Assembly (NCBI GenBank): GCA_000934665.2 | Contig: JYFJ02000115.1 | Coordinates: 62,001 to 126,000 of the forward strand | Length of the DNA: 64,000 nucleotides | Origin: Catajapyx aquilonaris | Lineage: Eukaryota | Reading direction: 5' to 3' | In this document: positions 38,004-56,629 of the stretch, in pieces | Numbering within the stretch: position 1 is the first letter of the stretch | Layout: each line of letters starts with the position of its first letter | The notes under the pieces: generated by a model | The model's database searches: none | What the model saw: only the letters and a program-made list of their open reading frames with translations | Told to the model about the DNA's origin: nothing | Position numbers and translations under genes: made by a program

Positions 38004-40156
38004 ATGAGCATCAGGATGGCAAGAGATCTTTTCATAAGCTGCATGGTAACACATCTGGATTGATATGAGCCTGAGCCTTGCATTATTAATCATATTATTC
38101 TTTAAGGTGTTGGTCGTGTCTGCATGCTGCCATCAGTATGAGTAAGTATGCTTGGTGGATGTTGTTGCATCATTATTGTGGAATTTTGCATCATGAGGCC
38201 TACATACACAGTAATAATAATCAGTATCAACAATTAATTTGTTTGGTTGTACGCTTCTGGATTATAGATTTTTTGAGAGGATCCGAAGAATGTACTTTTC
38301 ATTCCAGTGTCTTTGTTATGATTCTTATTTTACATTGACTTCCTCCAGAGTGGTGGCAAGTACAGACAATAACTCTGATGGCCAAGAATGCACTCTAGGA
38401 CACACATATCTGCATCCAGGTGACTGTCATAAGTTCTACAGATGCGACTACAAGACATCAAAAATGGTGACCCATTCTTGTCCTCGTGGAACATTTTTCC
38501 ATCCTGCTCTGCACTTGTGCTACCTGGAAAGTACACAGGTAAGGACAATAATTATTAGTGGATTTTGTTAACATTCAGGAATGTTGATTTGTTTGTTAAT
38601 AAAGGTTACGTAAAATCAAAAAGAGCAAAAGTTGCAATTAACATACCTGTAAAAATATAACATTCGACATATAGAAAAAGTGACATATGTGGAAATAAAG
38701 CAATTTCATGAGAAAATAGTGCCTGCATATTATAGTGTCTATTATGGAATGTTTCAATGCGTATATGGATTGCAGTTCATGTGAACTAAACATTCTTTCA
38801 CATTTACAGACCCCCTGCCATGCTGGAGACCTGGCTTTCAGTACAGTCATGGACGATTCATGTGATCCTGACAAAGACAAAAACAAATGCTTTAATTGCA
38901 CCACATATGCAACTTGCATATCTGTCACTAGCACATGGTACTATGGATCATGTAAAGATGGACAGTTTTGTGATTCCAAAACTGCTAAATGCTCAGAAGA
39001 CGTTCCAGCCTGTATTCCATTTCAGTGTGGTGATGATGGAACATTTCCAGATTACGCTAACTGCACCGTGTACCATGTTTGCAAGGATGGAGTGGACACT
39101 CCTCAGACTTGTGATAATGGCAAAGCATACAATCCTGCCTCTCTCCTTTGCGACAAAGACATGGATGACAAATGTTATGACTTAGTTGTCAAATGCGATG
39201 AGTCACCACAACCAAGTGTTCTAAAAAAGTTGCCTGTGGCAGGTGACTGTCTGCAGTATCACAATTGTGATGTGTCTAAGGAGTACAAGGAATCTTTGGT
39301 AGCCATATACCATAATTGCCCAAAAGGACAGTTTTTTGCTTATAACGACACATATGCGAGTGACCCAAAAGGTGGAAGGTGTTTAAGCGTATCAGCTGAC
39401 AACCAACCACCAGATGACTGCAAGGATGCTCTGGAAGAAGCTGGCGTACATTGCTTCAAGAGTGGTTTTAATCCAGCCGCTGAAGCTTGCCCAACAATTG
39501 CTTACTTTTGCAGTCCTAATTTACAGGAAATTGGAAACATTACCTGCCCTGATGACCAGGCTTATGATGCAGATGATTGCAAAGATTTTGCTGATGTCAC
39601 ATCTTGCAAAGATTTGTGCAAGGAATTGCCTCTGAAAAAGAAGAACCCGAGTGATTGCACCACATACTTTGAATGCGACAAGGTTGATGGAACGCCGAAG
39701 GTTAAAAAGTGCCCAGATGGTCAAGCCTTCAATGGTGCTAAGGGAGACTGTGACGACAAGGCCAATGTTCCACTGTGCCAATCTGGGAACATTCCATCTT
39801 CAACAACCGCATCCTCTTCAACATTTGGATCCACAACTGCTTCAAACACTGGTTCCACTCCGACAAGACCGTCTGGTTCCACATCTACAAACACAGGGTC
39901 GACTGTGACAGCAACTGGTTCCACTGCAATCACTTCTCCACCAACAGCTAGTACTCCTAAGCCATTCGAGTGTTCCAGAACTGGGAATTTTCCAGTTTCG
40001 CCAGGTTGTAATACCCATTACTACAATTGTTCTAGGCAACAGGGCAAATGGGTTAAGCAAATGAAAAATTGCCCTCCTTCATTCATATTTAGCAATATTC
40101 TGCTCCGTTGCGTCAAAGGCTCTTGTCCTGCTACAACAACTTCCCATATAAATTGA
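38004..40156 (+). CDS. Peritrophin-like protein, copy 2, with Ser/Thr mucin-like linker and terminal CBM14 domain (last exon 38810-40156; start 38004 or 38016)
   Basis: Same 4-exon layout and Cys pattern as copy 1, plus STT-rich linker and FECSRTGNFP..YYNC..CPPSFIF..C. Confidence 0.85.
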
Positions 40157-41679: not shown

Positions 41680-43952
41680 ATGCCAAATAGCCTTTTTGCA
41701 ATGGAAATGGTAATTATTGTTTCATAAATTTGTCAGGTCAGGTACTTATTTTTACAGTTGAAACTATGTTTTGCTGTGGGAAAACATTATTACTGTGTAT
41801 TATCATTTGGCTTTTTTTCAGATTTTGATGGCTTTAGCACTTTTTATTGGACCTTACAGTTGCGGGTAATTATCTGTTGTACTAAATGCACCTTTTCCGT
41901 TTAGAGCCCAAGTTATATCGCAAACATGAGTTTTGTTCACTTTGTACTTATTCAAGTTCTGCAATGTTTCTTTTTAAAAAAAGGCATCGTAGTGGCAGAG
42001 TACTAAATGTGTTGAGAAAGGCATCACAATTATTTACTAATCATAACAGTAGCTAGAATATGCCTACTTTTGCTGAAGTGTTGAGTCAGAATATGGCATA
42101 TATGTAGTTTTTTAAATGTAGATATCACGGGATGTATATTAACTATGTTCCTTGAAACCTTATTATAGAACTGCGACAAGCCGGAATGGACATTCTCATG
42201 ACTGCAAGTTAGGAGAAGAGTATCCTCATCCTGATAATTGCCATCAATTTTACACCTGCACTGCCATAGAAGAAGATACGAAAGTCACCATGCACACATG
42301 CACCGAGGGAACTTTCTTTGAACCTATTCTGGGTCTATGTGTACCTGAAGATCCGCAGGTAAATATTTTCTTATTTTTGTTCCTTCATCCTCTTTTTAAA
42401 ATCAATAAATACAATATATTTGATGCATCATAAAAACATTGCCTTAATTGTAATAATTTAAATAATGTACAGTAGGTACTTGGTTATGTTGGTTTTTAGT
42501 CTTTTTACTGATTCATTCATGTATGTTTTAATAATTCCACAGAATTTATGTCAACTTGATCTGGACGCCTTAGAAGACTTTCGCATGTTGACTCGAATAG
42601 GAGATGATCCATGCAAATCAGGAGATAATCCAAAGTGTGAAAACTGCACCACATATGCATATTGCAATACCTTTACATCAACATGGATGTACGGTACCTG
42701 CACTGGTGATACGCCATTTTGCGACGCAGAAAAAGCCAAGTGCAGTGCTGACGTACCTTCATGCATACCGTTTCAATGTGGAAAAGAAGGTATATATCCA
42801 GATGTTTATGACTGCACTAAATATCACGTATGTGATAAATCCGGAAAGGACACACAAAAGACATGCACCAATGGCAAGGCATTTAATCAAGTGTCCATGC
42901 TTTGTGATGCAGAGATGGACGATGATTGTACCAAAGCCATTGCATCTTGTGAGGATCATCCAAGTTCACTGAAGAAACTCCCTGTGGATGGTGACTGCTT
43001 GCTGTATTATAATTGTGAGGTGTCAAAGCAGTACCCAGACTCTCTTGTGCCAGTCTTTAGTAAATGTGACCAAGGACAATACTTTAATGAAGGCAATGCA
43101 AAATGTTTAAGTATAGCATCAGAAGATAACCCACCAGACCTAACATGCGCGTTACTTTTGACCGAGTCTGGAATTCACTGTGTGTATTCAGGATGGAATG
43201 CTGCTGATACTTGTCCAACTGTGGCTTACTTCTGCAATGATAAATTAAAGGAGCTTGGGAAGATCTCTTGTCCTGATGGCCAAGCTTTTGATATAGTTTC
43301 AACAGAGCCTAATTGCAAGGAATATTCTCAAATTGAAACGTGCAGCGACCTATGTAAGGAAGACACGACAAAAAAGCAGAACCCAAGTGATTGCACCACA
43401 TATTTTGAATGCAAGGAGAAAGGTGGAATGCCTAAGGTTGCAAAGTGCCCTGATGGACAAGCCTTTAATGATGCCATAGGAGAGTGTGATGCCATGTCTA
43501 ATGTTCCATTGTGCCAATCTGGGAATGTACCAACCTCAACTGCTGCAACATCCACCAGCAGTTTAACAACAGCGATATCCTCTTCTTCAACTCTGAATAC
43601 AGGTTCCACCCTGACAACACCGTCTGGTTTCACATCTCCTAACACTGGTTCTACAGCAACAGCATCACCATCCTCTGGTTCTACTTCAACAAACACAGCC
43701 ACAACTGCTGGATCAACATCCTTCACGTCTCAGCCAACAAGTCCTACCCCTCCACCATTCAAGTGCACGCGTACTGGATTTTTCCCAATTACCTCAGGCT
43801 GCAGTGACCAATACTACAGATGTTACAAGTCGGGAGGTATATGGCACAAGGTGGTGTTAACTTGCCCCAACGGATTCATATTTAACAATGAATTAAGTCG
43901 CTGCGTGAAGGGGTCGTGCCCTTCTTCAACAACCACATCCACAATCAGTTAG
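41680..43952 (+). CDS. Peritrophin-like protein, copy 3, with mucin-like linker (last exon 42543-43952)
   Basis: Same exon layout; YPHPDNCHQFYTC..CTEGTFFEP; CIPFQCG, NPSDCTTYFEC, S/T linker, FKCTRTGFFP..CPNGFIFN. Confidence 0.85.
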
Positions 43953-45402: not shown

Positions 45403-46497
45403 AATTTATGCTGCCTCAACAATGAGGCATAATCGCCGAAGAAATGTTTTGTACTTGTTCACATCCTCCCCCTTGCATGACATTGTTATAATAACTGAGG
45501 TGTACAGTGATGTGCGGTATGCTGGTTGTGTGTTGGTATCGGATATATGCCTGCTATGGCATTATGCAGTATTATTATGGCATGTGATATACTACACGAT
45601 GGTTTGTAGCATATCAGTAAGTGTCCGTCTCCTCTCTCCGCCGTTACATTATCGTACTCCCCAATGGCACTCCAAAGGCACCCAAGAAGAAAAATGCTAC
45701 AACGAATTGGTTGTAGCATTTTGAACGAGACGCAACAGGGACGTCAGGTACGGTATTTATTACTTGGCAAGTACTATACTGGTACAATATTGAAACTTAT
45801 TGTTGCAATTTTGCATATGTCAGTAGCTGTAGCGTGCCTAGGTTCCTCGAGGGGCTGGATGGCACGGCATCTGACGGCATTTTGCCACATTGTTAAAGGT
45901 TCGCGCAATATTGTTTATTCCTCCAATAATTAAATAATTCACTCTAGGCCACATTCCATTTGTTCAATTGTTTATGACTCCTGATGTAATGGAGTTTTTT
46001 TAAAAAAATTCTCTTAAAAAAAAAGCAGGAAAAGCGTCCTGCACCATGAGTTGGAGCCTTGTCGCCGGCGGTGTGGCTTTTCACCAATCCAGCTCGCACA
46101 CTGACATCGTCATGACTCATGTAAACATGCACAACACTGGTTTGCATGAGTCATGATGCCTTGGTCATGACAAACACTTTAATATATTTTTTTCTTCTTC
46201 TAGATTAACTGCGATTCATCATGACCGTAAGTTTTTGAAATTTCCGCCGGCCTTTTATGCCACCTGGCGCCAAATATTTAGTAGTTTCTCCTCTTGGCAA
46301 TAGATGGCATGGAAACACAACAGCTGTTTACATTTGAAGCAATATTTATGCAAACCAATCACCTGCCGAGTTTGCACACGATTGTCCAATCAGCTCTAGA
46401 CGCACATGCGCAATGGCCATTCCTTGTTGGCGACTGGAACGTGTGAACCGTCTCTTAAAGACAGCGTCGCACCGGCGGTCCACACGTCGTCGTTGCA

Positions 46498-47236
46498 ATG
46501 TCCTCAACGACGAACGGCAGCGGAAACCTTGTCGACGAGTTCGACGAAGCCTTCCAGGTAGCCCAAGCCACATTCCTAATTACACCCAAAAAAAAGTAGC
46601 TGCGGTACCTATATCACAAGTGTGCATTGTTCCCCCGTACAGGCGTGTTTGAATGTGCTGACCAAAGATGACAGCCTGCAATGGCCGGACAAGGAGGAGG
46701 TCCGCAGCGACATGGACCAGACAGTCCTCCGCTTCATCGACACGGCCAGGCAGATGGAGAGCTTCTTCCTTCAGAAGCGGTTCTTGCTGTCCGCTCTGAA
46801 GCCGGAGCTTATCGTCAAGGAGGACACCAACGAGCTCAGGCTGGAGCTGGTTAGTCGGCACTCGGCAGTATACGATGTATGTTACTATGAGTTTGTTTTG
46901 CAGGTGAGGAAGGACGAGCTGATCAAGAAGCATTATGACAAGATATCGGTATGGCAGAGCATGCTGGCTGATCTGCAGGGTGGTTCGAAGTCGCCTGCAC
47001 AAGGGCCGCCACCGCCGCCGCCACCTCAGGCCTCCACCCCTAGCTCAGGACCACCGGCTGCTTCCACCCCACCCGTTTCGGGACCAGGTGCGGCTCCACC
47101 TTTCCCAGGGCCCACACAGGGGCCGCCTCAGGGCCAGCCTAGGATGCAGTTTTCAAATCCTTCAGCCAATCTGCAGGGTCCGCTAGCTTATCTGGAAAAG
47201 ACAGCCTCGAACATCGGGATCCCAGAAAGGCGGTAG
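46498..47236 (+). CDS. MED28: Mediator complex subunit 28, 3 exons (46498-46557, 46643-46849, 46904-47236)
   Basis: NLVDEFDEAFQ|ACL..DQTVLRFIDTARQMESFFLQKR..KPELIVKED..LRLEL|VRKDELIKKHYDK..QGPLAYLEKTASNIG. Confidence 0.95.
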
Positions 47237-47415
47237 CGCAACTGGACAGCAAAAGTGAAGGGACACGTTTTCAAAATTCGACGAGGAGGTGCAGTGTCAA
47301 ACGATGTTAATCCAAATATATTTTTAATTTAATCTGTTTGCAAACTTATGTTTGGTGTAAGCTCTGACCGCGTACAAAAGACAATCAGGAACAACTGATA
47401 AACAGTGAAGGTTTT

Positions 47416-47789
47416 TCATTTGCTGATATCGCCCTTGGTGGCACTCTTGTCCGCAGAAGTTGAGGAATTGCCGGCCTCTCCGAACTCCTCTGGCTTTTGT
47501 TCCGCGTCTTCTTTTATCTTCTTTATCCTGGCAGCCTCGCCTTCCGGATCGTAGAGAGAGCTAAGCTGAAGCTCCATTTCGCTGCAGCTCACTGCAAGAG
47601 ATGTAATTTCTTCACAGGTCCCACCTTTTTCATGGTATTTTTGAACTGCAATCGTAACTGACCTCTCATGTCCACGATTTCCTTCGCACACTCTTGTAGA
47701 ACACCGGTGTTCTCCGCCAGCTGCTGCACGCTCCATTCCATCTCCCTTACACTCTCCTCGCACCTCTTCCTCAAGTTATGAAGCTCCAT
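47416..47789 (-). CDS. Hypothetical 100-aa coiled-coil protein (exons 47663-47789, 47416-47591), paralog of the 30189 gene
   Basis: A 71-nt phase-1 intron gtcagt..ctcttgcag gives ..KEIVDMR|VSCSEMELQLSSLYDPEGEAARIK.. Confidence 0.65.
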
Positions 47790-48251
47790 CGTACTGAACG
47801 AAGTCAGTCCAACACTATTTGCACTCTCCAAAAAATTCGAACAAAAATAATGGCGCCTGACTGGCCAGGTGGCAGAGTGATCTGCACTGTTGCCAAATAT
47901 AGCCATCGCAGGATTGCCATGTGTTCATAGGAGGATAAATGACTACTACCAAAGTGCAATGCAAAAATGTCCCCATTTATTTCCTGATTCATGTCTGTGT
48001 ATATGATGTTCCAACTGTAGGCCTACTTACAAAAAAAGGGGGGGGGGGATGTCAGCATAATTGTCATGTGTTGAAACAACAATGAAATACGAGTCCCTCC
48101 AAACTGTTAAAAATTACTAGAAACCACAGGCATCAACAATGTGACAATCCCAGCATCCAACTATTATTCGCAGAATCTTTTGCAACAAATGGGCCGCATC
48201 CCCGTCCATTTTCGCAAGAGTAGCCTTCAATTGTCCATTTTCCGATGTCAA

Positions 48252-51200
48252 TTATTCCTGCATACCAACCAGAAACTCAACAATGGTTCTCAGAGGCCTT
48301 CCTGTGAATCCTTTTCCCAGGTAGACGACCTCATCCTTGTTCTCCATTGTTCCAGCAATGTCCATATGGACCCAGTGCTCAGCAGTGGTGAATTCCTTCA
48401 GGAAGGCTGCGGCCACACAGGCACCGCTGGCTGGAGAGTGCTTCCCAATGTTGTTCAGATCCGCGTTGCTGCAATCCTGGACCTGAAAATTGTTGCGGAC
48501 ATGCGTCAAGTCCAGCTGCAATAACATGACGGCAATGCGACATGTACCTGTCTGGTGTAGATGTTCCACACCGGCATCCGCCAGACCCTGTCCCCCGTCT
48601 TGATCCCAGCTTCATGCAGCCTCTTCCACATTTCCGTTGAGTTAGTGAAGGTTCCTGCTGCACCTGCACCCAACGCAACACGTATGGCACCAGTCAAAGT
48701 GGCCATATCAATCACTACTCTCGGATTGAACGTATCTGCATAGCACAGGGCATCCGCTAACACCAGTCTGCCCTCCGCATCTGTGTTGTCCACCTGTAAG
48801 CACAGGAAGTGGTGCACACTAATTTAAAAAAAAATTATCATGCTTACCTGTACAGTCTTGCCGTTCATAGCGTAAAATACGTCTCCTGGTTTGGTAGCAG
48901 TGCTGCTGGGGAGATTCTCGCTCAACGGTACAAGACCGACCAAGTTGACATTCAGCTTTAAGGACGCAGCAGCATAAAACGAAGCAAAGACAGTAGCTCC
49001 TCCACCCATGTCTCCGCGCATCTGATCCATGCGAGCAGAGGGCTTGATGGAAATTCCGCCGCTGTCAAATGTTATTCCCTTGCCTGGAAAATTGGGTCAA
49101 CAATTTAAAATAATGGCCAGTAAATGAGGCTAGCGAAACCTACCAACAAGAACGATGGGCTTCTTCCCTTGCGCCCCTTGGCTGCAGTAGCTCAGTTCCA
49201 GAAACACTGGAGGCTGCGCTGAGCCTTGTGATACGCTCAAGAAGCATCCCATTCCCTTCTGCTTGGCCCATTCCCGATCGTGCTGCACCACCTTCACACC
49301 CAGAGGACTCAGCAGTCTTTCAGCCTCCCCTCCAAATATAGTGGGCGTCATCAAATTGGCTGGTGTCTCAGCCAACCTCCGTGACACGTTCTGAGCCTCC
49401 GCCTTCACTTTCCCTTTCTCCCACTCGGCCTGGCCTGAAGGATGGCAGAAACAATTAAATATAAATACGCACAAGGCGGGCATATTCTGACCTTCTCCTG
49501 ATGTTGGGTATGGCTCCACAGCGACAGCATCCTTGCGACGGTTTTTGAGATCATCGTAAGCCCACATCCCCAAGAGCGCTCCTTCTGCAGAGGCTTCAGG
49601 GTCACCTGCAGTGTCCAGGGAGACATGAGTGACACCAGCAGTGTCACGCAGGGCACGGCAAGCTACAGAGGCATATGCACGGATGGCCTCTCGTCGCTCA
49701 TCCACTTCCTCCAGTTCTGAGTAGCCAAGATCATCGCGACCTAAGCCTGAAATGGCTACTACTGGATATTCAGGTTCGAGTCCATAGAACAGTCGAGTTT
49801 TCCCAAGTTTTGGAGCAGGGCCGGATCTGAAAATCAAAAAGTGAACGATACAGCCATATTGTCCAGTTATGTAAGTGACACATCTCCACACATAACTGGA
49901 CAGTCACTCTGGGAAGATGTGACTTACCCATGAGTAGTCGCGTACAAAACTGAAAGTAATGATTACATTTCAATCAAACAAAATTGGCTTTGACTTCAGT
50001 GGCAAAAAATGAAACGTGCTCCGTCACTTGTTAAGGCATGATAACAAAAATGAGATTGAGCAGAAGGAAGTGCAACAGAGAAGGAGACTGATAAGTAATC
50101 AAATTCTATTATTAGTGAAAGAGCACAATATACATCAGTTTTGCCACCTTGACTTGACCTTCTGGCTGTAATGTAACGCAACACTTTATTGCTACCACAT
50201 CAAAACAAATAAAAACATGACTTAAGTACAAATTAAGTCAAACCAGTTCTAGTATCTTTATGGTTCCTTGACTGTTTGCTGCCACAACCACGTCTGACCC
50301 TTGCCTCCAACACACGGCTGATACAAACTCATTGGCGTCGTCCTCTTTCCGATCCTTTTCAAACACCCCCCGGACTGCATCAAACCTGAAGTTGAAGAGC
50401 TGCTTCGATAGTCCTTTATAGTACACATAAAGGGCATTGTTCTCTGACCCACATGCTACATAGTCGCCATCAGTGGCCAGCCCGACAAAATTCTTCTCGT
50501 TGACATGGCCAACAAATGAACGGACAGAATGAGTCTTACCAATATCCCACAGTTTCAGCTGGGAATCAGTTGATGCAGACACAATCTCATCACGACTCAC
50601 AAACTTCACGTAACTCACTGCCTTGCGGTGACCCTTGAAAACTGCCAGCGCTTCCTTGGTTGACCTCAGGTCATAGTAATGCACACAGTGATCTGCTGAT
50701 CCAAATGCCAGGTGGTAACAGCTCTCAGGGTTGAACTTGACGCAGCATACGTTTGCCTTTGCTTCTAAGCAAGCAACTGAGTGGTCCACATTAATCGACC
50801 ATAGTTTGACTCTCGAGTCATCGGACCCAGAAGCAATCAGTTTGGTGTCGACCCGGTTGAAGTCAACTGACCAGCAGCGCTTCTCGTGCTCCTGGAATGT
50901 CCGAGTACGAGTAGCAGTGTTTGCATCCCACACAGTAACAGTGCCTTCGTAATCAGAACTTGCCAACAACCCCTTGTGATATGAACTCCATGATACGCAG
51001 CTAATTTTGGAGTTACACAGCATCTCTACACATGGGTAGTGTATGTCCACAGCATCTTTGACGACGACACTATAGTCAAACACCTTGATCCGTTTGGTGA
51101 CACCAGCAATTGCAAAGTATTCGTTGTCACGATCAAATTCGATGCTGGATACGATGCTTGAGTTGTTGAATATATCACTGGTGTAGTTAAGTGTCGCCAA

Positions 51201-52806
51201 TGGACGGAGTGACTGGTAGCGACAGAACTTTGCAAGCGACTCTGAGAACGAGTCTAGTCCAGTGGCATCGCCACCTCCTAGCACAACCTCACGTGAACGG
51301 CAACCAAAGTAGCACTGGACCAGGTCATCAAAGTGAACATGCACTTTTTTGCGTCTCGCAGATAACCCAGCATCAGTTCTGGCACCAGTGACATTAAAAC
51401 CAGGCACATCTGGTTCAGGCACTGCTACGTCATCCACAACCACATCATCGACGCGAGACTCGGCTGTGTTCAAGTCAGCTTCAACCAATGCTACCTCGCG
51501 TCGCAGTTGCTCCAGCTGATCGCGCCTTTGATGCAACAGCTGGGCCAAGAATTCACGCAGCAATTCTGCATGCGTACGCCGCGACTCTGCTTCCAGTTGC
51601 TGCTTGCGTCGTGTCAAAACGTCCAGCATTAATGACACCTCATTGAGCTTCAACATTTGGCACTGCTCAACCATCAAGCTGCGAAGCTCCGTGTTAGGCT
51701 GCGGTGCCGGCTCTTCCACATGACGTCTTGTGGCACCAGTCTTGTGCTTTGCCACTAGTTCATTCAGCAGTGAGTTTGGTACCAACGTGTCGGCGCCACC
51801 TAAGACATGGTTGCATTTTGGACATCGACCCGTCAGCTCCAGGCTCTTGGATACGCACCGGTAGCAAAAAGTGTGCCCACACTTTGTTATATGCGCAGCT
51901 TCGATTAATTCGAAGCATATTGGACATAAGTAGTCACTCCCCTTGTCCTCAAAAGTCCCACCAATTCCATTCAAAACGGATGGAAAAGGTCGCTTCTGGC
52001 CACGGGATGATGAAGCGGTCGGTTCAGACATGGTTAACACATCAGTTTTCTCACACACACAGGGACGGGGTGCAGGTTGACCTGAAACAGCAAGCAACGG
52101 GGAAGCTTACACACCCATACCAAAACTATGTTTATAATTTTGTTTAAAATAACTACACAGGGGGTGACTTTGCAATGCCAACCTTCAAACAGTTTGCTTC
52201 AATAAGGTGGCCAGTAAGCACCCCCGAAGGTTACGATTTAATGACCACCCTGTCCCAATAAGTGTCCTTTGCAGTGAAGGTTTTAGTCTGAGTTGGTGTG
52301 AGAGGGTTTCAGGTCAATCTCTACCCATCCTCGCCCCAAGCATACGACCATTGCCGCCACTTACAGCTTCAGCAGCTCCACCAGCTTTCCGCCTGTGATC
52401 TGGTCGTACTTGTAGGCGGCAGGGGTCAGCTTGGGCGCACCATCCCCTTCGTACACACCCAGCGCCACTCCTTTCTGCAAAAAATGGATCATATATATTG
52501 TTCCTTTCTACACCCCAGCACGAATCGCCCTGGAATATCCCATGGGTATCGCCACTGGATATTTGGATATCCATGGGATATTCCAGGGCGATTCGTGCTA
52601 CTTGGGACAATATGGAAGTGATGCAACTGTGGCCATACCTTCATCCCCCTTGACGGTACGTGTGTCCCGGCGGTACAGGAAGGTGCGAGGGTGCTTCTGG
52701 AACAGCCGGAGACGAGGAAGAGCAGCGACGAAAGAGGCCTCGACGACGACACTGACGTTCGACGACCCAGGGATGCGATGGAGACGGCGATGCCACCTAT
52801 AACCAT
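48252..52806 (-). CDS. LAP3: Cytosol (leucyl) aminopeptidase, peptidase M17; exons 52639-52806, 52365-52474, then from 49826 down to 48252
   Basis: [89 protein letters not shown]. Confidence 0.95.
50238..52031 (-). CDS. COP1: E3 ubiquitin ligase COP1 (RING, coiled coil, WD40); intronless CDS, ORF open upstream to 52097
   Basis: [34 protein letters not shown]40 [64 protein letters not shown]. Confidence 0.97.
52514..52606. repeat. Hairpin / mini-MITE in LAP3 intron 1
   Basis: agcacgaatcgccctggaatatcccatgg / ccatgggatattccagggcgattcgtgct. Confidence 0.85.
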
Positions 52807-53372
52807 GGCTGACCCACCACTGTTGCCACATCATGCGCAACCACCCCCCTCCCATTTTTTTAAAAAAAATATAATTCCAACCTAGTTTCATTCATTAAAA
52901 AATTAAGGCTAAGCATTATACAATTGCTTTCAAATTAATTGCGACATGATGACGTTCGATTTACGGGATTTACGTAAGAAGCTTGGAAGTTTTCCCGCCA
53001 GATGGCAGGACCGCCTTTTTCCCCGGGAGGTTCAAAACATGTTCCTCTAATTACCGTAATTGACAGTACTTGTTGGCGGCCTGTTCCCCACAAAAAAATG
53101 GTCATGCGAAAACACACTAAAAAACTGTTTCTCCTGAATATGACCTACTGAAATGGGGGGTGCGTCTATACATGCCTGTGAGTCAATGTATAATAATAAA
53201 CTTTTATTTTGTAATCATTCACAACAATATAATGTCACTTGAGATTGTACTGTAATACTGCCATGTGCAAACCCCGGCATTATTGCAGCGTGTCCAACAA
53301 TGTGCCCTAAATGCGTTTCCAACAACCCTGGATTGTCAATTTGTGTCACTAGTTTTTAAAATACCTATTGTT

Positions 53373-53552
53373 GGTACTATTTTAACAGCAAAAGTAATGT
53401 CGCAGTGTTATGTGATGGCGTCCGTGACTTGTTGTTTAGCATGGGTTGTGGAATGTTGCCAAATTAACGTCCGCAACTCGGCAACGCCCATGCTAAACAA
53501 GTCGCAGACGGCATTGTAACAGTGCGACATTACTTTTGCGGTTAATAGTACC
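53373..53552. repeat. Long imperfect hairpin (about 70-bp arms), MITE-like
   Basis: ggtactatt..gcaaaagtaatgtcgca..gtttagcatggg versus cccatgctaaac..tgcgacattacttttgc..aatagtacc. Confidence 0.85.
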
Positions 53553-53646
53553 GTACTGGCCCTTTTGGAATTGTGACAGTCAGGACCTGTCCAAATTTGG
53601 TGAAACAAAACAACAGTCTTTCTTGGCTTTTAAAAAAAGGGTAATC

Positions 53647-54415
53647 TCAGAGTTCCTCATGGTCTTCAAAGTTGTAGTCATCATTGTCTGCACTGTCGTC
53701 GTTGCATAACCCTGCACCTTTTGTACAGAGAAGCAAGGCCGGATCGTCTTGCTTCCATGATAATGCCTTGACTATTGCCTCCTCATGTTCTTCAATAATG
53801 CTTTCACACTGAAAATAATGATAATTATGAGACTCAATTTCATTGGACTGGAAGGATTTGCTGGAAGGACCTGCCAAAGGCTCTGCAACAGTTTTACTTA
53901 CATAGAACTGTAGGTTGTTGTTGGTGTCCAAATCGGGGATCATGTCAACTGCGCTCATCTCCTCATTCATCTTCCCGTCATGCCCTATTAACCTCAGAAG
54001 CGTTAGTTTTCCATTGGACTTGTACTTGGCCTGCGCATAATCCTGGAAGTTCTGACACACCGTCTCCAGCAGGTCCATCAGATGCATTTCAGAGCGTGCA
54101 AACGGAACCTGAAATCAAGCCCATTACAATCGAAGCGCAATGAACAGGTTTATTTTCTGTTCCTCACCGACGTCTGCTTCTGGTTTCCATCCGAGTCCAA
54201 CCGGAAGGTGCCAACGTCCACCTTCTTATTTGGGTCCACCTTCCCAATATCATGCTCCAACTCCTGCATGATCGCCTTGCACACTGGAAAGCATTTAATC
54301 AGGCGACAGTGTCCCGCTACGGAATGACCTGTGTGTACCCACCCAAGCATTTAAGCTCTGCCTTCTGATCCGCACAGGCCAGCGCAACCAGCGTCAACAC
54401 AACAATGAGCTTCAT
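53647..54415 (-). CDS. CNPY2: Canopy family ER protein (CNPY2 / seele-like), 4 coding exons
   Basis: Signal peptide, saposin-like C..C, VDVGTFRLD..G.Q, VPFARSEMHLMDLLETVC, FYCESIIEEHE, C-terminal HEEL ER-retention signal. Confidence 0.88.
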
Positions 54416-54792
54416 ACTCCTGCAGCAGCCTGGAAGGGAAACCATTGTTAGTGTGATGAACACAATGACCAGCATTGTTATGGGCGGTACCTTCCAGGCT
54501 CAACCGATGCCTGCTTCGGACGAGGTGTGAAGAAGTGGTGACGAAGACACCTAGATAGTGGCAGAGGACAACAAGGCGACACAGTGCTTAGCACACGTGT
54601 ACCAGTCAAAACGCACCGCTAGGAGGCGACACCCTCACGGAACATGACAACGACAATTGCACCAGTAAATCAACCTCATATTTAACCCAAACACTTTTTT
54701 TAAAAAAATTCTGGCCAGTTATTTTTGATAAAACAAGCAATTGTTGCTGTTGGCGACCCTGTTGGGATTGGCACCTCCGCGTGTCGTTCAAG

Positions 54793-56629
54793 ATGGCGGC
54801 CAACATGCTGCGAAAGATTCCGGAATATTTGTCAAGGATTTCCAGGCTTTTCTTCGGGCATGGTGAGGCACACACCGGACTAGGGTTTTGCTGGCAATCA
54901 GTTGACAGAATGGACTTTTTTTTGGTAAATCGTGTTGGCCTGACTGAAGTGGCAAATATTGACACAGAGCCAAACCACCGACATGAACAGTGACTTCTGT
55001 GGCTTTCTAAACAGAATTGAAGTATTTAGCAGCATTTTCAAATGCATTGTTGGAGTTTAATTATTATGCCTTATCCTTCGCAGATAATATTCCGGCGTTG
55101 GCCATTGCTCATCCAGCCACGGCTGTACAGTTGACACCTCCAAGTGGTAGCGTTGATGATGGCTTCCTGTGGGCTGTTCCTCGTGACCGCAGATCCATTG
55201 AGAGGCGCCTAACCCGCAAATTTGGTGTTGAGAAATGGGGCACAAAATTGATGATGCCAAAGACAACCCTGCGGATATGTAATGCCTGTGGTCACTACCA
55301 CGAGGCTGGGAGGCTCTGCCGTGGGTCCAGTTTTTGCACTTGGGGGATCTTCTATTATTATTCTTATTTTTAAAAATTTATTTTAAGTAACCCCATTGTT
55401 GGGGCAGAGCCCCTTTAGGGGGGTGGAATTTTCTATTAGCTCCTGTTAAGATGTAATTTTAAAATTTCAGCCAACTGTTATGAGACAGTGAAGAAAGAGA
55501 CAGAAGAAATGCAAGAAGCAATCCAAAACCGTCTGGGTCTGAATCCAATAGAAAAGGAGGTTGTAGTACTTTACGATGGCGAGAAAGAGCAATGTTCAGA
55601 TGAAACAATCAAGGTACTGCATGTGATGCATTCATTTACAGGCACATTTTTTGTTATTGCATGCAATTAGACAAATATGCCCCAGGTTGAAGCGATTGGC
55701 CTGAATCAAGCTTGTTTCGTTTTATACTTGGTACTTTTTCTGCACCCAATGAAAATGCACTAAATATGGCTGTAGATCTACGAGGGCCATTCCAAAATGA
55801 TTTACAATTTTTCTGCCACCAATGCAGGCCCCATTCAGGTCGGCTAATAGGCACACATTATCGATATAATCCTTATGGAGCCGAATTCACAGGAGTCGTG
55901 GGTGTGGCAACCTCTCCAGACCCTCCAGGAACCACCTTTTTCTGGGGCGGCGCACCCACTCTTGGACAACTCTTCGCAGTCAACAATGTCCATGAAATGG
56001 CATCAGTGAAGGGATTTTTTTCAGTTTCTGAACTGGTGAAAGTCACGGGGCCAGGCCATGGTAGTACGGCGGGTGTTGAAGCACCAAAAACTGTATCCAT
56101 AGAAAACAAAACCCTTCGCCAACACAATTTCCAGGACATTGTTGACTGTAAGCAGTTGTCCAGGAGTGAGGGCGCCACCCGACCAAAAAGTGGTTCCTAG
56201 AGGACCTGGAGTGGTTGCCAAACAATGACTTCTGTGCATTCAGGGCTCCAGGAGGATTCTATCAATAATGTGCACCTATTTGCCAACCTGCATGGGCCCT
56301 GTATTTGTGGCAAAAAATAAATTGTAAATCATTTCGGAACATCCCTCATAAAAGTTGATCTCAGCTAGACAACTTAGAGACCAAAAAGGCTAAATCTCAG
56401 GGATAGAATGGATAATGTTGCTTATCACACAAGTTTCATTGGATGGGCAGTAGTACAGGATGGCTTGACTTACACAAGTACTGTTGTGCACATGCTTTAT
56501 TCTCAGTCCAAGTACATAGTGGAAGTGAAGAAGGAGCGACCCAAGTGGTTCAGTCGCAATTTGATGCAGCGGACCACCCAAAGTGTGGATTCAACTACCA
56601 CAACAGTTAAACCATCAGAGCTTGGTTAG
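54793..56629 (+). CDS. MRPL32: Mitochondrial ribosomal protein L32, 4 exons (54793-54862, 55084-55320, 55471-55613, 56507-56629)
   Basis: FLWAVPRDRRSIERRLTRK, CNACGHYHEAGRLC|PNCYE, PIEKEVVVLYDGE, KKERPKWFSRNL. Confidence 0.92.
55781..56348. mobile_element. Fold-back MITE with mariner-like ends and TA target-site duplication, in mRpL32 intron 3
   Basis: ta|cgagggccattccaaaatgatttacaatt.. versus ..aattgtaaatcatttcggaacatccctca|ta; inverted similarity extends about 250 bp per arm. Confidence 0.85.

Follow-up and report, generated by a model that had tools for sequence, protein, structure and literature searches.

Must a gene that lies whole within an intron of another gene, on the same strand, be expressed from a start of its own, or can it live as an alternative end of its host's transcript? 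The question is raised by a 64,000-nucleotide stretch of the Catajapyx aquilonaris genome (assembly GCA_000934665.2, contig JYFJ02000115.1, positions 62,001 to 126,000; hereafter the window, to which all coordinates refer), in which an intronless COP1 gene sits in the second intron of the aminopeptidase gene LAP3, both on the minus strand. COP1, an E3 ligase, plays a central part in both animals and plants; to our knowledge its regulation in insects is essentially unstudied. We consider it likely that the locus is a compound LAP3/COP1 transcription unit in which COP1 is used as an alternative last exon. The donor of LAP3 exon 2 is joined both to LAP3 exon 3 and to an acceptor just before COP1, the nesting is conserved in other lineages, and so is a complementarity between an intronic box and the COP1 acceptor (coordinates in Table 1).

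The nested open reading frame (ORF) is a complete COP1. It runs unbroken and free of introns from ATG to TGA over 597 codons plus the stop, in the orientation of LAP3 and inside LAP3 intron 2, as a preliminary description of this DNA had stated with coordinates that proved exact. Pfam recognises a RING finger at residues 36-73 (zf-C3HC4_2, E 5.7e-12; score 45.7 bits, cut-off 27) as well as WD40 repeats (E 6.5e-27). The solved COP1 chain 9ltr_A is matched over residues 8-597 (E 9.4e-228), and the C-terminal WD40 domain (residues 256-597) matches the solved COP1/RFWD2 chains 5hqg_A and 5igq_A (E about 1e-173). In an alignment of nine COP1 sequences (A1, the window and eight relatives), the RING zinc ligands C36, C39, C51, H53, C56, C59, C70 and C73 are unchanged throughout and the WD40 domain holds long invariant runs; the region linking RING and WD40, where a COP1 protein would have its coiled coil, can also be aligned with other COP1 proteins, with L129, L136, L139, E147, L158 and L162 conserved. 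Because 1.8 kb stand open and the product is 56-66% identical to the best 120 of 2910 related proteins, the named ones among these 120 being COP1/RFWD2 from insects, ticks and other animals, the sequence indicates a genuine gene that cannot be a chance ORF. The AATAAA reported downstream of it is present, and is the sole AATAAA or ATTAAA from the COP1 stop to LAP3 exon 3.

The host gene is divided into seven exons, which when spliced encode 538 residues. Its start codon lies at 52806-52804 in the context tcagccATGG, a second in-frame ATG follows at 52644, and the N-terminus has zero acidic residues among its first 55, as in a mitochondrial presequence. The translation of exon 3 matches Peptidase_M17_N (PF02789, E 5.9e-7), and exons 4-7 match Peptidase_M17 (PF00883) in order, at profile positions 1-82, 84-161, 163-243 and 248-310. 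At residue 383 stands NTDAEGRL, which we take to be the signature of the M17 leucine aminopeptidase family. Exon 2 ends ...CTG AAG CT/gtaagt at 52365 and exon 3 begins ttttcag/A TCC GGC at 49826 (a slash marks the exon border). From the exon-2 donor to the COP1 ATG there are 333 nt, in agreement with an earlier estimate of about 330 bp.

Evidence on splicing comes from one public sequencing run, X5, whose kind is unrecorded and which was treated as RNA-like solely on its spliced contigs, read beside a DNA run, X1. Contigs of X5 show eight GT..AG joints on the minus strand; none of the eight occurs in X1, which is colinear throughout. Because X5 skips GT..AG stretches where the DNA run is colinear, we take it as spliced, RNA-derived sequence. 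The joint from 52639 to 52474 links exon 1 to exon 2 and carries all 110 nt of exon 2. Another contig skips exactly the stretch between exon 2 and exon 3, from donor 52365 to 49826, as the preliminary description had drawn it. A third joint, from 52365 to 52081, lies in contig 11 (622 nt, zero mismatches) and leads from the same donor to the COP1 acceptor, ctgtttcag/G at 52082/52081, 50 nt before the COP1 ATG; it was printed as 52079 to 52363 and fits equally well two places rightward, as 52081 to 52365. Because the exon-2 donor joins both 49826 and 52081, COP1 behaves as an alternative 3'-terminal exon of LAP3, and the earlier suggestion that COP1 uses the LAP3 5' exons has thereby found a spliced contig to stand on.

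Apart from the letters of exon 2, X5 has no sequence on 52082-52364, and contig 11 is continuous through the COP1 acceptor into exon 2, with no stop there. Because of these two observations, an unspliced 5' leader of COP1 appears to be absent at assembly depth. An in-frame mini-exon, ATGG/gtagag at about 52325, had been put forward for COP1; X5 has no sequence there and gives it no RNA support. X5 contig depth is 42.2 on LAP3 exons 3-7, 8.3-11.8 on COP1 and 18.2 on exons 1-2, values that are not comparable between the two mRNAs. The COP1 contig of X5 ends at 50252 and 50010-50210 has no cover, a gap that is uninformative on the use of the poly(A) site.

We propose that transcription would start at the LAP3 promoter near 52813 and that exons 1 and 2 would be spliced together. 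Joined to the proximal acceptor at 52082/52081, the exon-2 donor would lead into a terminal exon with the COP1 ORF and its own AATAAA, giving a COP1 mRNA; joined to the distal acceptor at 49826, it would lead into LAP3 exons 3-7, giving the mRNA of the M17 aminopeptidase. COP1 would then have no separate promoter. This anatomy, a terminal exon with an AATAAA of its own, fits the competition between splicing and intronic polyadenylation that had been suggested for the locus.

The shared exons carry the LAP3 ATG and 92 codons, and are thus coding for the host. In an mRNA made of exon 1, exon 2 and COP1, the LAP3 ATG opens an upstream ORF (uORF) of 102 codons, which ends after 10 codons of the COP1 exon at a TGA 19 nt before the COP1 ATG. 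The LAP3 frame is out of frame with COP1, as had been predicted for a splice to this acceptor, and reading the frames confirms that the host piece would be a uORF and COP1 the downstream ORF. Three more ATGs precede that of COP1 at 52031: one at 52644 in the LAP3 frame (48 codons), one at 52443 in the COP1 frame (5 codons) and one at 52042 (2 codons, TAA at 52036-52034). Because the ORF from 52443 ends after 5 codons, the COP1 frame is closed upstream. COP1 would need one of three translation routes because the LAP3 ATG opens the 102-codon uORF before it: leaky scanning, reinitiation, or transcripts that start downstream of the LAP3 ATG. Short leaders can permit ribosomes to bypass the first ATG. 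In X5, the exon 1 contig extends just about 7 nt beyond the LAP3 ATG on its upstream side. Contig ends do not map starts; should this one lie close to the true start, the leader would be very short and such a bypass could take place.

How widespread is this arrangement? A scan of metagenome contigs with the COP1 alignment gave 78 loci. Full-length COP1 appears as a single uninterrupted tblastn match in 29 of them (14 on contigs of at least 5 kb; the other 15 on contigs of 2.1-2.9 kb, possibly transcripts), in several pieces in 11, and only partially in 38. The premise of the preliminary description that an intronless COP1 is unusual therefore fails for arthropods. A profile built from blocks resembling LAP3 exon 2 detected a same-strand block upstream of COP1 in ten of the 78 loci (L001-5, L007, L008, L015, L023 and L041, with E values between 9e-22 and 4e-18; the best of the remaining hits has E 1.9). 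Counting only loci with a testable upstream region, that is the COP1 N-terminus and at least 600 nt before it, the block is present in 10 of 23. LAP3 exons follow COP1 on the same strand in L008, L015, L023 and L026, four among the 37 loci whose sequence continues for 600 nt or more past COP1.

Independent lineages are fewer than loci: L001, L002, L003 and L005 are near-identical and L004 is close to them, while L008 and L015 are the same sequence. L001-5 are cockroach-like (the L001 COP1 shares 90% identity with a Periplaneta protein and 88% with one from Blattella), the COP1 of L008/L015 is 86% identical to that of the aculeate wasp Ampulex, that of L007 is 74% identical to a Thrips protein, and the nesting also occurs in the further unplaced lineages L023, L041 and L026. 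In a FastTree phylogeny of 55 COP1 sequences over 632 columns (support values not read), the window protein is sister to all winged-insect sequences; P0032, which resembles L041, groups with a mayfly, L023 falls inside the insects on a long branch, and L026 falls outside them, also on a long branch. The nesting predates the split of the window lineage from the winged insects.

The details of the arrangement recur with it. The phase of the host intron is constant, exon 2 ending two bases into a codon in the window and six loci, and exon 3 supplying the third base in L008, L023 and L026. Before the COP1 ATG, the acceptor motif is TGTTTCAG in five lineages and GCTTCAG in L023, at 17-75 nt from the ATG in five of six lineages and at 247 nt in L008. 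Without exception among the lineages, the LAP3 frame closes after 1-10 codons of the COP1 exon, and its stop lies 1-53 nt before the COP1 ATG, or 237 nt in L008, where the acceptor was chosen by the analyst. LAP3 exon 2 and the COP1 ATG are 0.3-1.2 kb apart, also in L001-3, where the remainder of the host intron is longer than 10 kb. Among the other loci, a canonical poly(A) signal is near the COP1 stop in L008 only (77 nt), that of L001 being far away (757 nt), and none was found within the available sequence of L007, L023, L026 and L041.

Intronless COP1 genes on contigs of genomic size with no LAP3 exon detected nearby were also seen (L021, L025 and L027-L029), and because of them an intronless COP1 is not always tied to LAP3. 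A fused LAP3-COP1 protein was considered and rejected: the candidate, P0001 (956 aa), is an internally duplicated COP1 model and not a fusion, and the LAP3 exon-2 profile found nothing among the best 120 COP1 proteins (best E 2.9). By eye, P0001, which is named Papilio xuthus RFWD2, repeats about 160 residues of the WD40 domain twice, probably an artefact of assembly or annotation.

What could decide between the two acceptors? A search for repeats found a 21-nt inverted repeat in which one arm is a box in the intron and the other is the COP1 3' splice site itself. The core of the box, TTGACCTGAAAC, starts 48 nt into the intron and pairs perfectly over 12 bp with GTTTCAG/GTCAA at 52088-52077; the stem is found in both the minimum free energy (MFE) fold and the centroid fold of 52380-52040. 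The loci L001-4, L007 and L008 each have one CCTGAAAC, 104-176 nt upstream of the acceptor, and in L001, L004, L007 and L008 the gene strand has no further copy anywhere in the 10-22 kb of the locus. Both sides are altered in L023, with GCTTCAGG as the acceptor and TCTGAAGC as the box, and about 20 bp are formed; in L041, GTTGAAGCAATCAAT pairs with ATTGATTGTTTCA.

In an alignment of seven sequences anchored at box and acceptor (A2), 75.5% of cells are paired, versus 24-45% when the partner is slid by 1-3 columns, and none of 500 shuffles matches the observed pairing or covariation score. Eight core pairs form in all seven sequences, and both sides change in 10 of 20 pairs. RNAalifold, unprompted, predicts the box-acceptor helix and no other. 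When the energy of the duplex was compared with 200 shuffled introns, the shuffles as good numbered 6 for the window, 2 for L007, and 0 for both L023 and L041. A scan of 46000-55000 against Rfam gave no family at threshold. The stem probably masks the proximal acceptor and tunes the ratio of LAP3 to COP1. Once formed, it would hide this acceptor and weaken the definition of the terminal exon, polymerase would read on, and exon 3 would be used; once opened, it would favour COP1. The stem would thereby set the LAP3:COP1 ratio.

A number of points weigh against the compound unit. The RNA evidence is a single RNA-like run of unrecorded kind, from the window's organism and no other species. Its junction contigs hold only 30 letters of exon 2 (towards exon 3) or 32 including two ambiguous ones (towards COP1), at or below the 31-letter rule for a bridging contig; such short overhangs of 30 and 32 letters are what an assembly graph leaves where a path forks. 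Contigs cannot place exon 1, exon 2 and COP1 on one molecule, nor do they show where transcripts begin or end or whether the AATAAA is used. The context of the LAP3 ATG is strong (GCCATGG), and translation of COP1 from behind a 102-codon ORF is awkward. As for the stem, the fold of the full 341 nt has ordinary stability (z -0.73), and the duplex energy is clear in only four of seven sequences, 48, 87 and 79 of 200 shuffles being as good in L001, L004 and L008. The box was derived from the same sequences that were used to test it, L001 and L004 are close kin, and the acceptor TTTCAG is constrained by splicing itself. Finally, 13 of the 23 testable loci are without a LAP3 block, among them the intronless L021, L027-29 and L045 as well as multi-exon loci.

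One set of alternatives concerns the origin of the nesting only and is compatible with the compound unit. COP1 may have been retroposed long ago in an insect ancestor, a scenario to which we give slightly less than an even chance and in which L041 gained three introns later; the other origin is a nested COP1 with introns, which were then lost several times. As ancient retroposition would have it, COP1 genes with no intron occur all over the insect part of the tree and also in its sister clade (L021, L025). Much turns on the mayfly-like L041 (L041:1331-3575), whose COP1 is 82% identical to P0032, lies behind a block like LAP3 exon 2 and has three short GT..AG introns of 55, 68 and 238 nt, after window residues 82, 257 and 407; the other insect-like loci have none. 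L041 could pass for proof of an originally multi-exon nested COP1. Comparison of intron positions and phases weakens it: two of the three introns are off the positions of the multi-exon relatives (the second coincides with none of the introns of the multi-exon loci), the third differs by 1 nt and in phase, and three gains need fewer events than many complete losses. On the other hand, this third intron is at most 1 nt from an intron of L057, L065, L066, L069, L072 and L075, as if it had been retained, and no clear hallmark of retroposition survives. The sister-clade loci are without LAP3 within 0.5-1.1 kb upstream and 2.7-3.3 kb downstream, and because of this, intron loss and nesting may be separate events.

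A more direct challenge to the compound unit is that COP1 has its own promoter within the LAP3 intron, the junction from exon 2 to COP1 being a minor by-product and the neighbourhood being kept only because moving the inner gene away would disrupt the outer one. Contigs cannot show where transcripts start and only one run is at hand, and an mRNA with the shared exons, with its 102-codon uORF in a strong start context, would be a poor template for COP1. There is also a precedent, as the cholinergic locus has promoters specific to the nested gene in the host intron, according to the title of reference 44 in PMC3053374. Against this stand the lack of X5 sequence on 52082-52364 and a 5' contig of COP1 that passes unbroken through the acceptor into exon 2. 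A strong acceptor, needless for an unspliced gene, is kept before the COP1 ATG in six of six lineages, the box complementary to it is conserved with compensatory changes, and exon 2 remains within 0.3-1.2 kb of the COP1 ATG though the host intron otherwise exceeds 10 kb (L001-3). We find a private promoter improbable.

The version in the preliminary description, a lineage-specific retrocopy that captured the host promoter and left an intron-bearing parent elsewhere in the genome, is highly implausible and in effect excluded because the nesting is conserved across insect lineages, being found in the identical intron and phase in lineages that resemble cockroaches, wasps and thrips and in unplaced ones, although a 1.8 kb coding sequence with no intron inside a gene with six would suit it. 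It could also point, as a possible relic of the insertion, to a flanking direct repeat matching at 14 of 16 positions (52054-52039 and 50147-50132; GTGAGAAAACTGATGT and GTGGCAAAACTGATGT on the gene strand, the first copy beginning 23 nt ahead of the COP1 ATG, the second 91 nt past the stop), for which 1 of 60 shuffles is as good. However, no poly(A) tract follows the COP1 AATAAA in the window sequence, any flanking repeats of L001, L007, L008 and L023 are at chance level (equalled by 17 to 58 of 60 shuffles), and it is implausible that a repeat would survive so long in non-coding DNA; one in 60 may be chance, and the repeat probably is.

Table 1. Features of the LAP3/COP1 locus (window coordinates; a slash marks an exon border)
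Feature	Position	Strand	Basis and remarks
LAP3 exon 1	52639..52813	-	X5 joint 52639 to 52474, GT..AG; contig end near 52813 from the depth table
LAP3 exon 2 (110 nt, ends ELLK, phase 2, CT/gtaagt)	52365..52474	-	X5 joints; in both the LAP3 and the COP1 mRNA
LAP3 intron 2, host intron (2538 nt)	49827..52364	-	skipped exactly by an X5 contig, GT..AG; X1 colinear
Intronic box, core TTGACCTGAAAC at 52317-52306	52306..52326	-	inverted repeat, folds, covariation
Intron removed from the COP1 form of the mRNA (283 nt)	52082..52364	-	X5 contig 11, GT..AG
Partner arm: end of polypyrimidine tract, AG (52083-52082), first exon bases	52068..52088	-	inverted repeat, folds, covariation
COP1 exon, 5' untranslated part	52032..52081	-	holds the end of the LAP3-frame uORF (TGA 52053-52051) and the 2-codon ORF
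COP1 coding sequence	50238..52031	-	ORF, Pfam, alignment, structure match
AATAAA	50185..50190	-	48 nt past the COP1 stop; sequence only, use not shown by RNA
LAP3 exon 3 (Peptidase_M17_N)	49491..49826	-	X5, Pfam
LAP3 exon 4	49143..49433	-	X5, Pfam
LAP3 exon 5	48846..49082	-	X5, Pfam
LAP3 exon 6 (contains NTDAEGRL)	48546..48791	-	X5, Pfam
LAP3 exon 7, coding part including stop	48252..48480	-	X5, Pfam; X5 contig extends past 48000

Two further inverted repeats lie in LAP3 introns. One, at 49860-49902, is a perfect repeat of 13 nt with a 17-nt loop, 34-76 nt upstream of the exon 3 acceptor, and could affect the use of this distal site. The other, in intron 1 at 52517-52599, is a hairpin with 34-nt arms, 97% complementary and 15 nt apart; X1 depth rises there from about 34 to 916 and several X1 contigs terminate in it with loose ends, so that it looks like a short high-copy inverted-repeat (MITE-like) element. 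Upstream of LAP3 on the same strand, at 53195-54087, is a gene with a DUF3456 domain (canopy/MSAP-type; Pfam E 1.2e-16), spliced from 53902 to 53808 in X5; its X5 contig stops at 53195, which leaves about 380 nt before LAP3 exon 1 begins. Within 53226-53627, X1 depth is 520-1953 against a baseline of about 35, and one X1 contig has 16 other letters in place of 53423-53517; a high-copy and perhaps polymorphic repeat seems to separate the DUF3456 gene from LAP3 here. On the plus strand, an ORF for the Mediator subunit Med28 (46580-47236, E 4.8e-25) is convergent with the LAP3 3' end, and two open frames of 478 and 496 aa (38720-40156 and 42462-43952), each with several peritrophin-A (CBM_14) chitin-binding domains, are probably tandem paralogues.

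The compound unit can be extended to a stronger and more doubtful claim, namely that in all insects and their closest kin COP1 lacks a promoter and is made only as an alternative last exon of LAP3, its output being set by the stem and by the ribosomes that pass the LAP3 ATGs through leaky scanning or reinitiation. We hold this tentatively and think it somewhat unlikely. If it were true, the coupling of an E3 ligase that controls growth to a gene for an aminopeptidase would go back several hundred million years, by our estimate from insect divergences, and the loss of the COP1 introns may itself be a consequence of life as a terminal exon behind a uORF. Were COP1 expressed only through the LAP3 promoter, gene models with two separate genes would be incomplete, knock-outs of LAP3 or edits of its promoter would hit COP1 too, and the ligase would be bound in its expression to a housekeeping peptidase. 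Compact as it is, at about 3 kb with a regulatory intron of 283 nt, the locus could serve as a natural system for studying side by side the masking of a splice site by RNA structure, intronic polyadenylation and translation past a long uORF, and lineages such as L023 provide ready-made compensatory variants. More generally, what appears to be a lineage-specific retrogene can be an old and conserved compound locus.

We found no literature on the LAP3-COP1 locus or on an intronless or nested COP1 in animals; this search did not cover subscription journals or the annotations of genome databases, and genome annotators may already have noticed the arrangement. At the cholinergic locus, VAChT lies inside the first ChAT intron as a single exon in nematodes, Drosophila and mammals (PMC3053374), and multiple promoters and alternative splicing give two mRNAs (PMC3053374; bioRxiv 10.1101/2021.03.29.437568). 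The LAP3/COP1 locus resembles it in a nested ORF that is one coding exon within a 5' host intron on the same strand, in an mRNA of the nested gene that carries a host 5' exon (here 30-32 letters of exon 2 in one run), and in conservation across distant taxa (here 10 of 23 testable loci, with cockroach-, wasp- and thrips-like members). It differs in that the shared exons are coding here, with the LAP3 ATG and 92 codons, and that the nested ORF stands behind a long uORF. The shared exon of the cholinergic locus is non-coding. The cholinergic products also act in one pathway, whereas we know of no functional link between LAP3 and COP1.

Human CPNE1 and RBM12 share a promoter and a 5' untranslated region (UTR), an arrangement conserved from zebrafish to human and accompanied by more than 20 further human pairs (PMC2568002). 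There, as here, two unrelated proteins come from one promoter and shared 5' exons by alternative splicing; the LAP3/COP1 locus shares host coding exons and also differs in gene pair, taxon and masking stem.

For control by a stem, the parallel is Drosophila Nmnat, where splicing to the proximal acceptor leads into a terminal exon that carries a poly(A) site, splicing to the distal one continues the gene, and conserved complementary boxes decide between them (PMC2724269). The same paper describes another Drosophila intron in which a stem incorporates and suppresses the proximal acceptor site, demonstrates control by stems through mutation and compensation, and finds that boxed introns are enriched for alternative acceptors in combination with poly(A) signals (PMC2724269). 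As at Nmnat, the boxes described here are conserved across species with compensatory changes and the proximal acceptor leads to a terminal exon. Unlike at Nmnat, the two outcomes are unrelated proteins rather than isoforms of one, and one arm of the stem, here predicted from sequence, is the acceptor itself.

Finally, mature mRNAs with more than one ORF occur in insects, as in the dicistronic 'Rule-Benders' of FlyBase (PMC4528330) and in a tricistronic silkworm mRNA read by context-dependent scanning (PMC2978622). The predicted COP1 mRNA would be like the dicistronic ones in carrying two non-overlapping ORFs, and unlike them in opening with a 102-codon fragment of the host protein and not with a complete gene. 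What sets this locus apart is the gene pair, the sharing of host coding exons with a 102-codon uORF, and an acceptor that is itself an arm of the stem.

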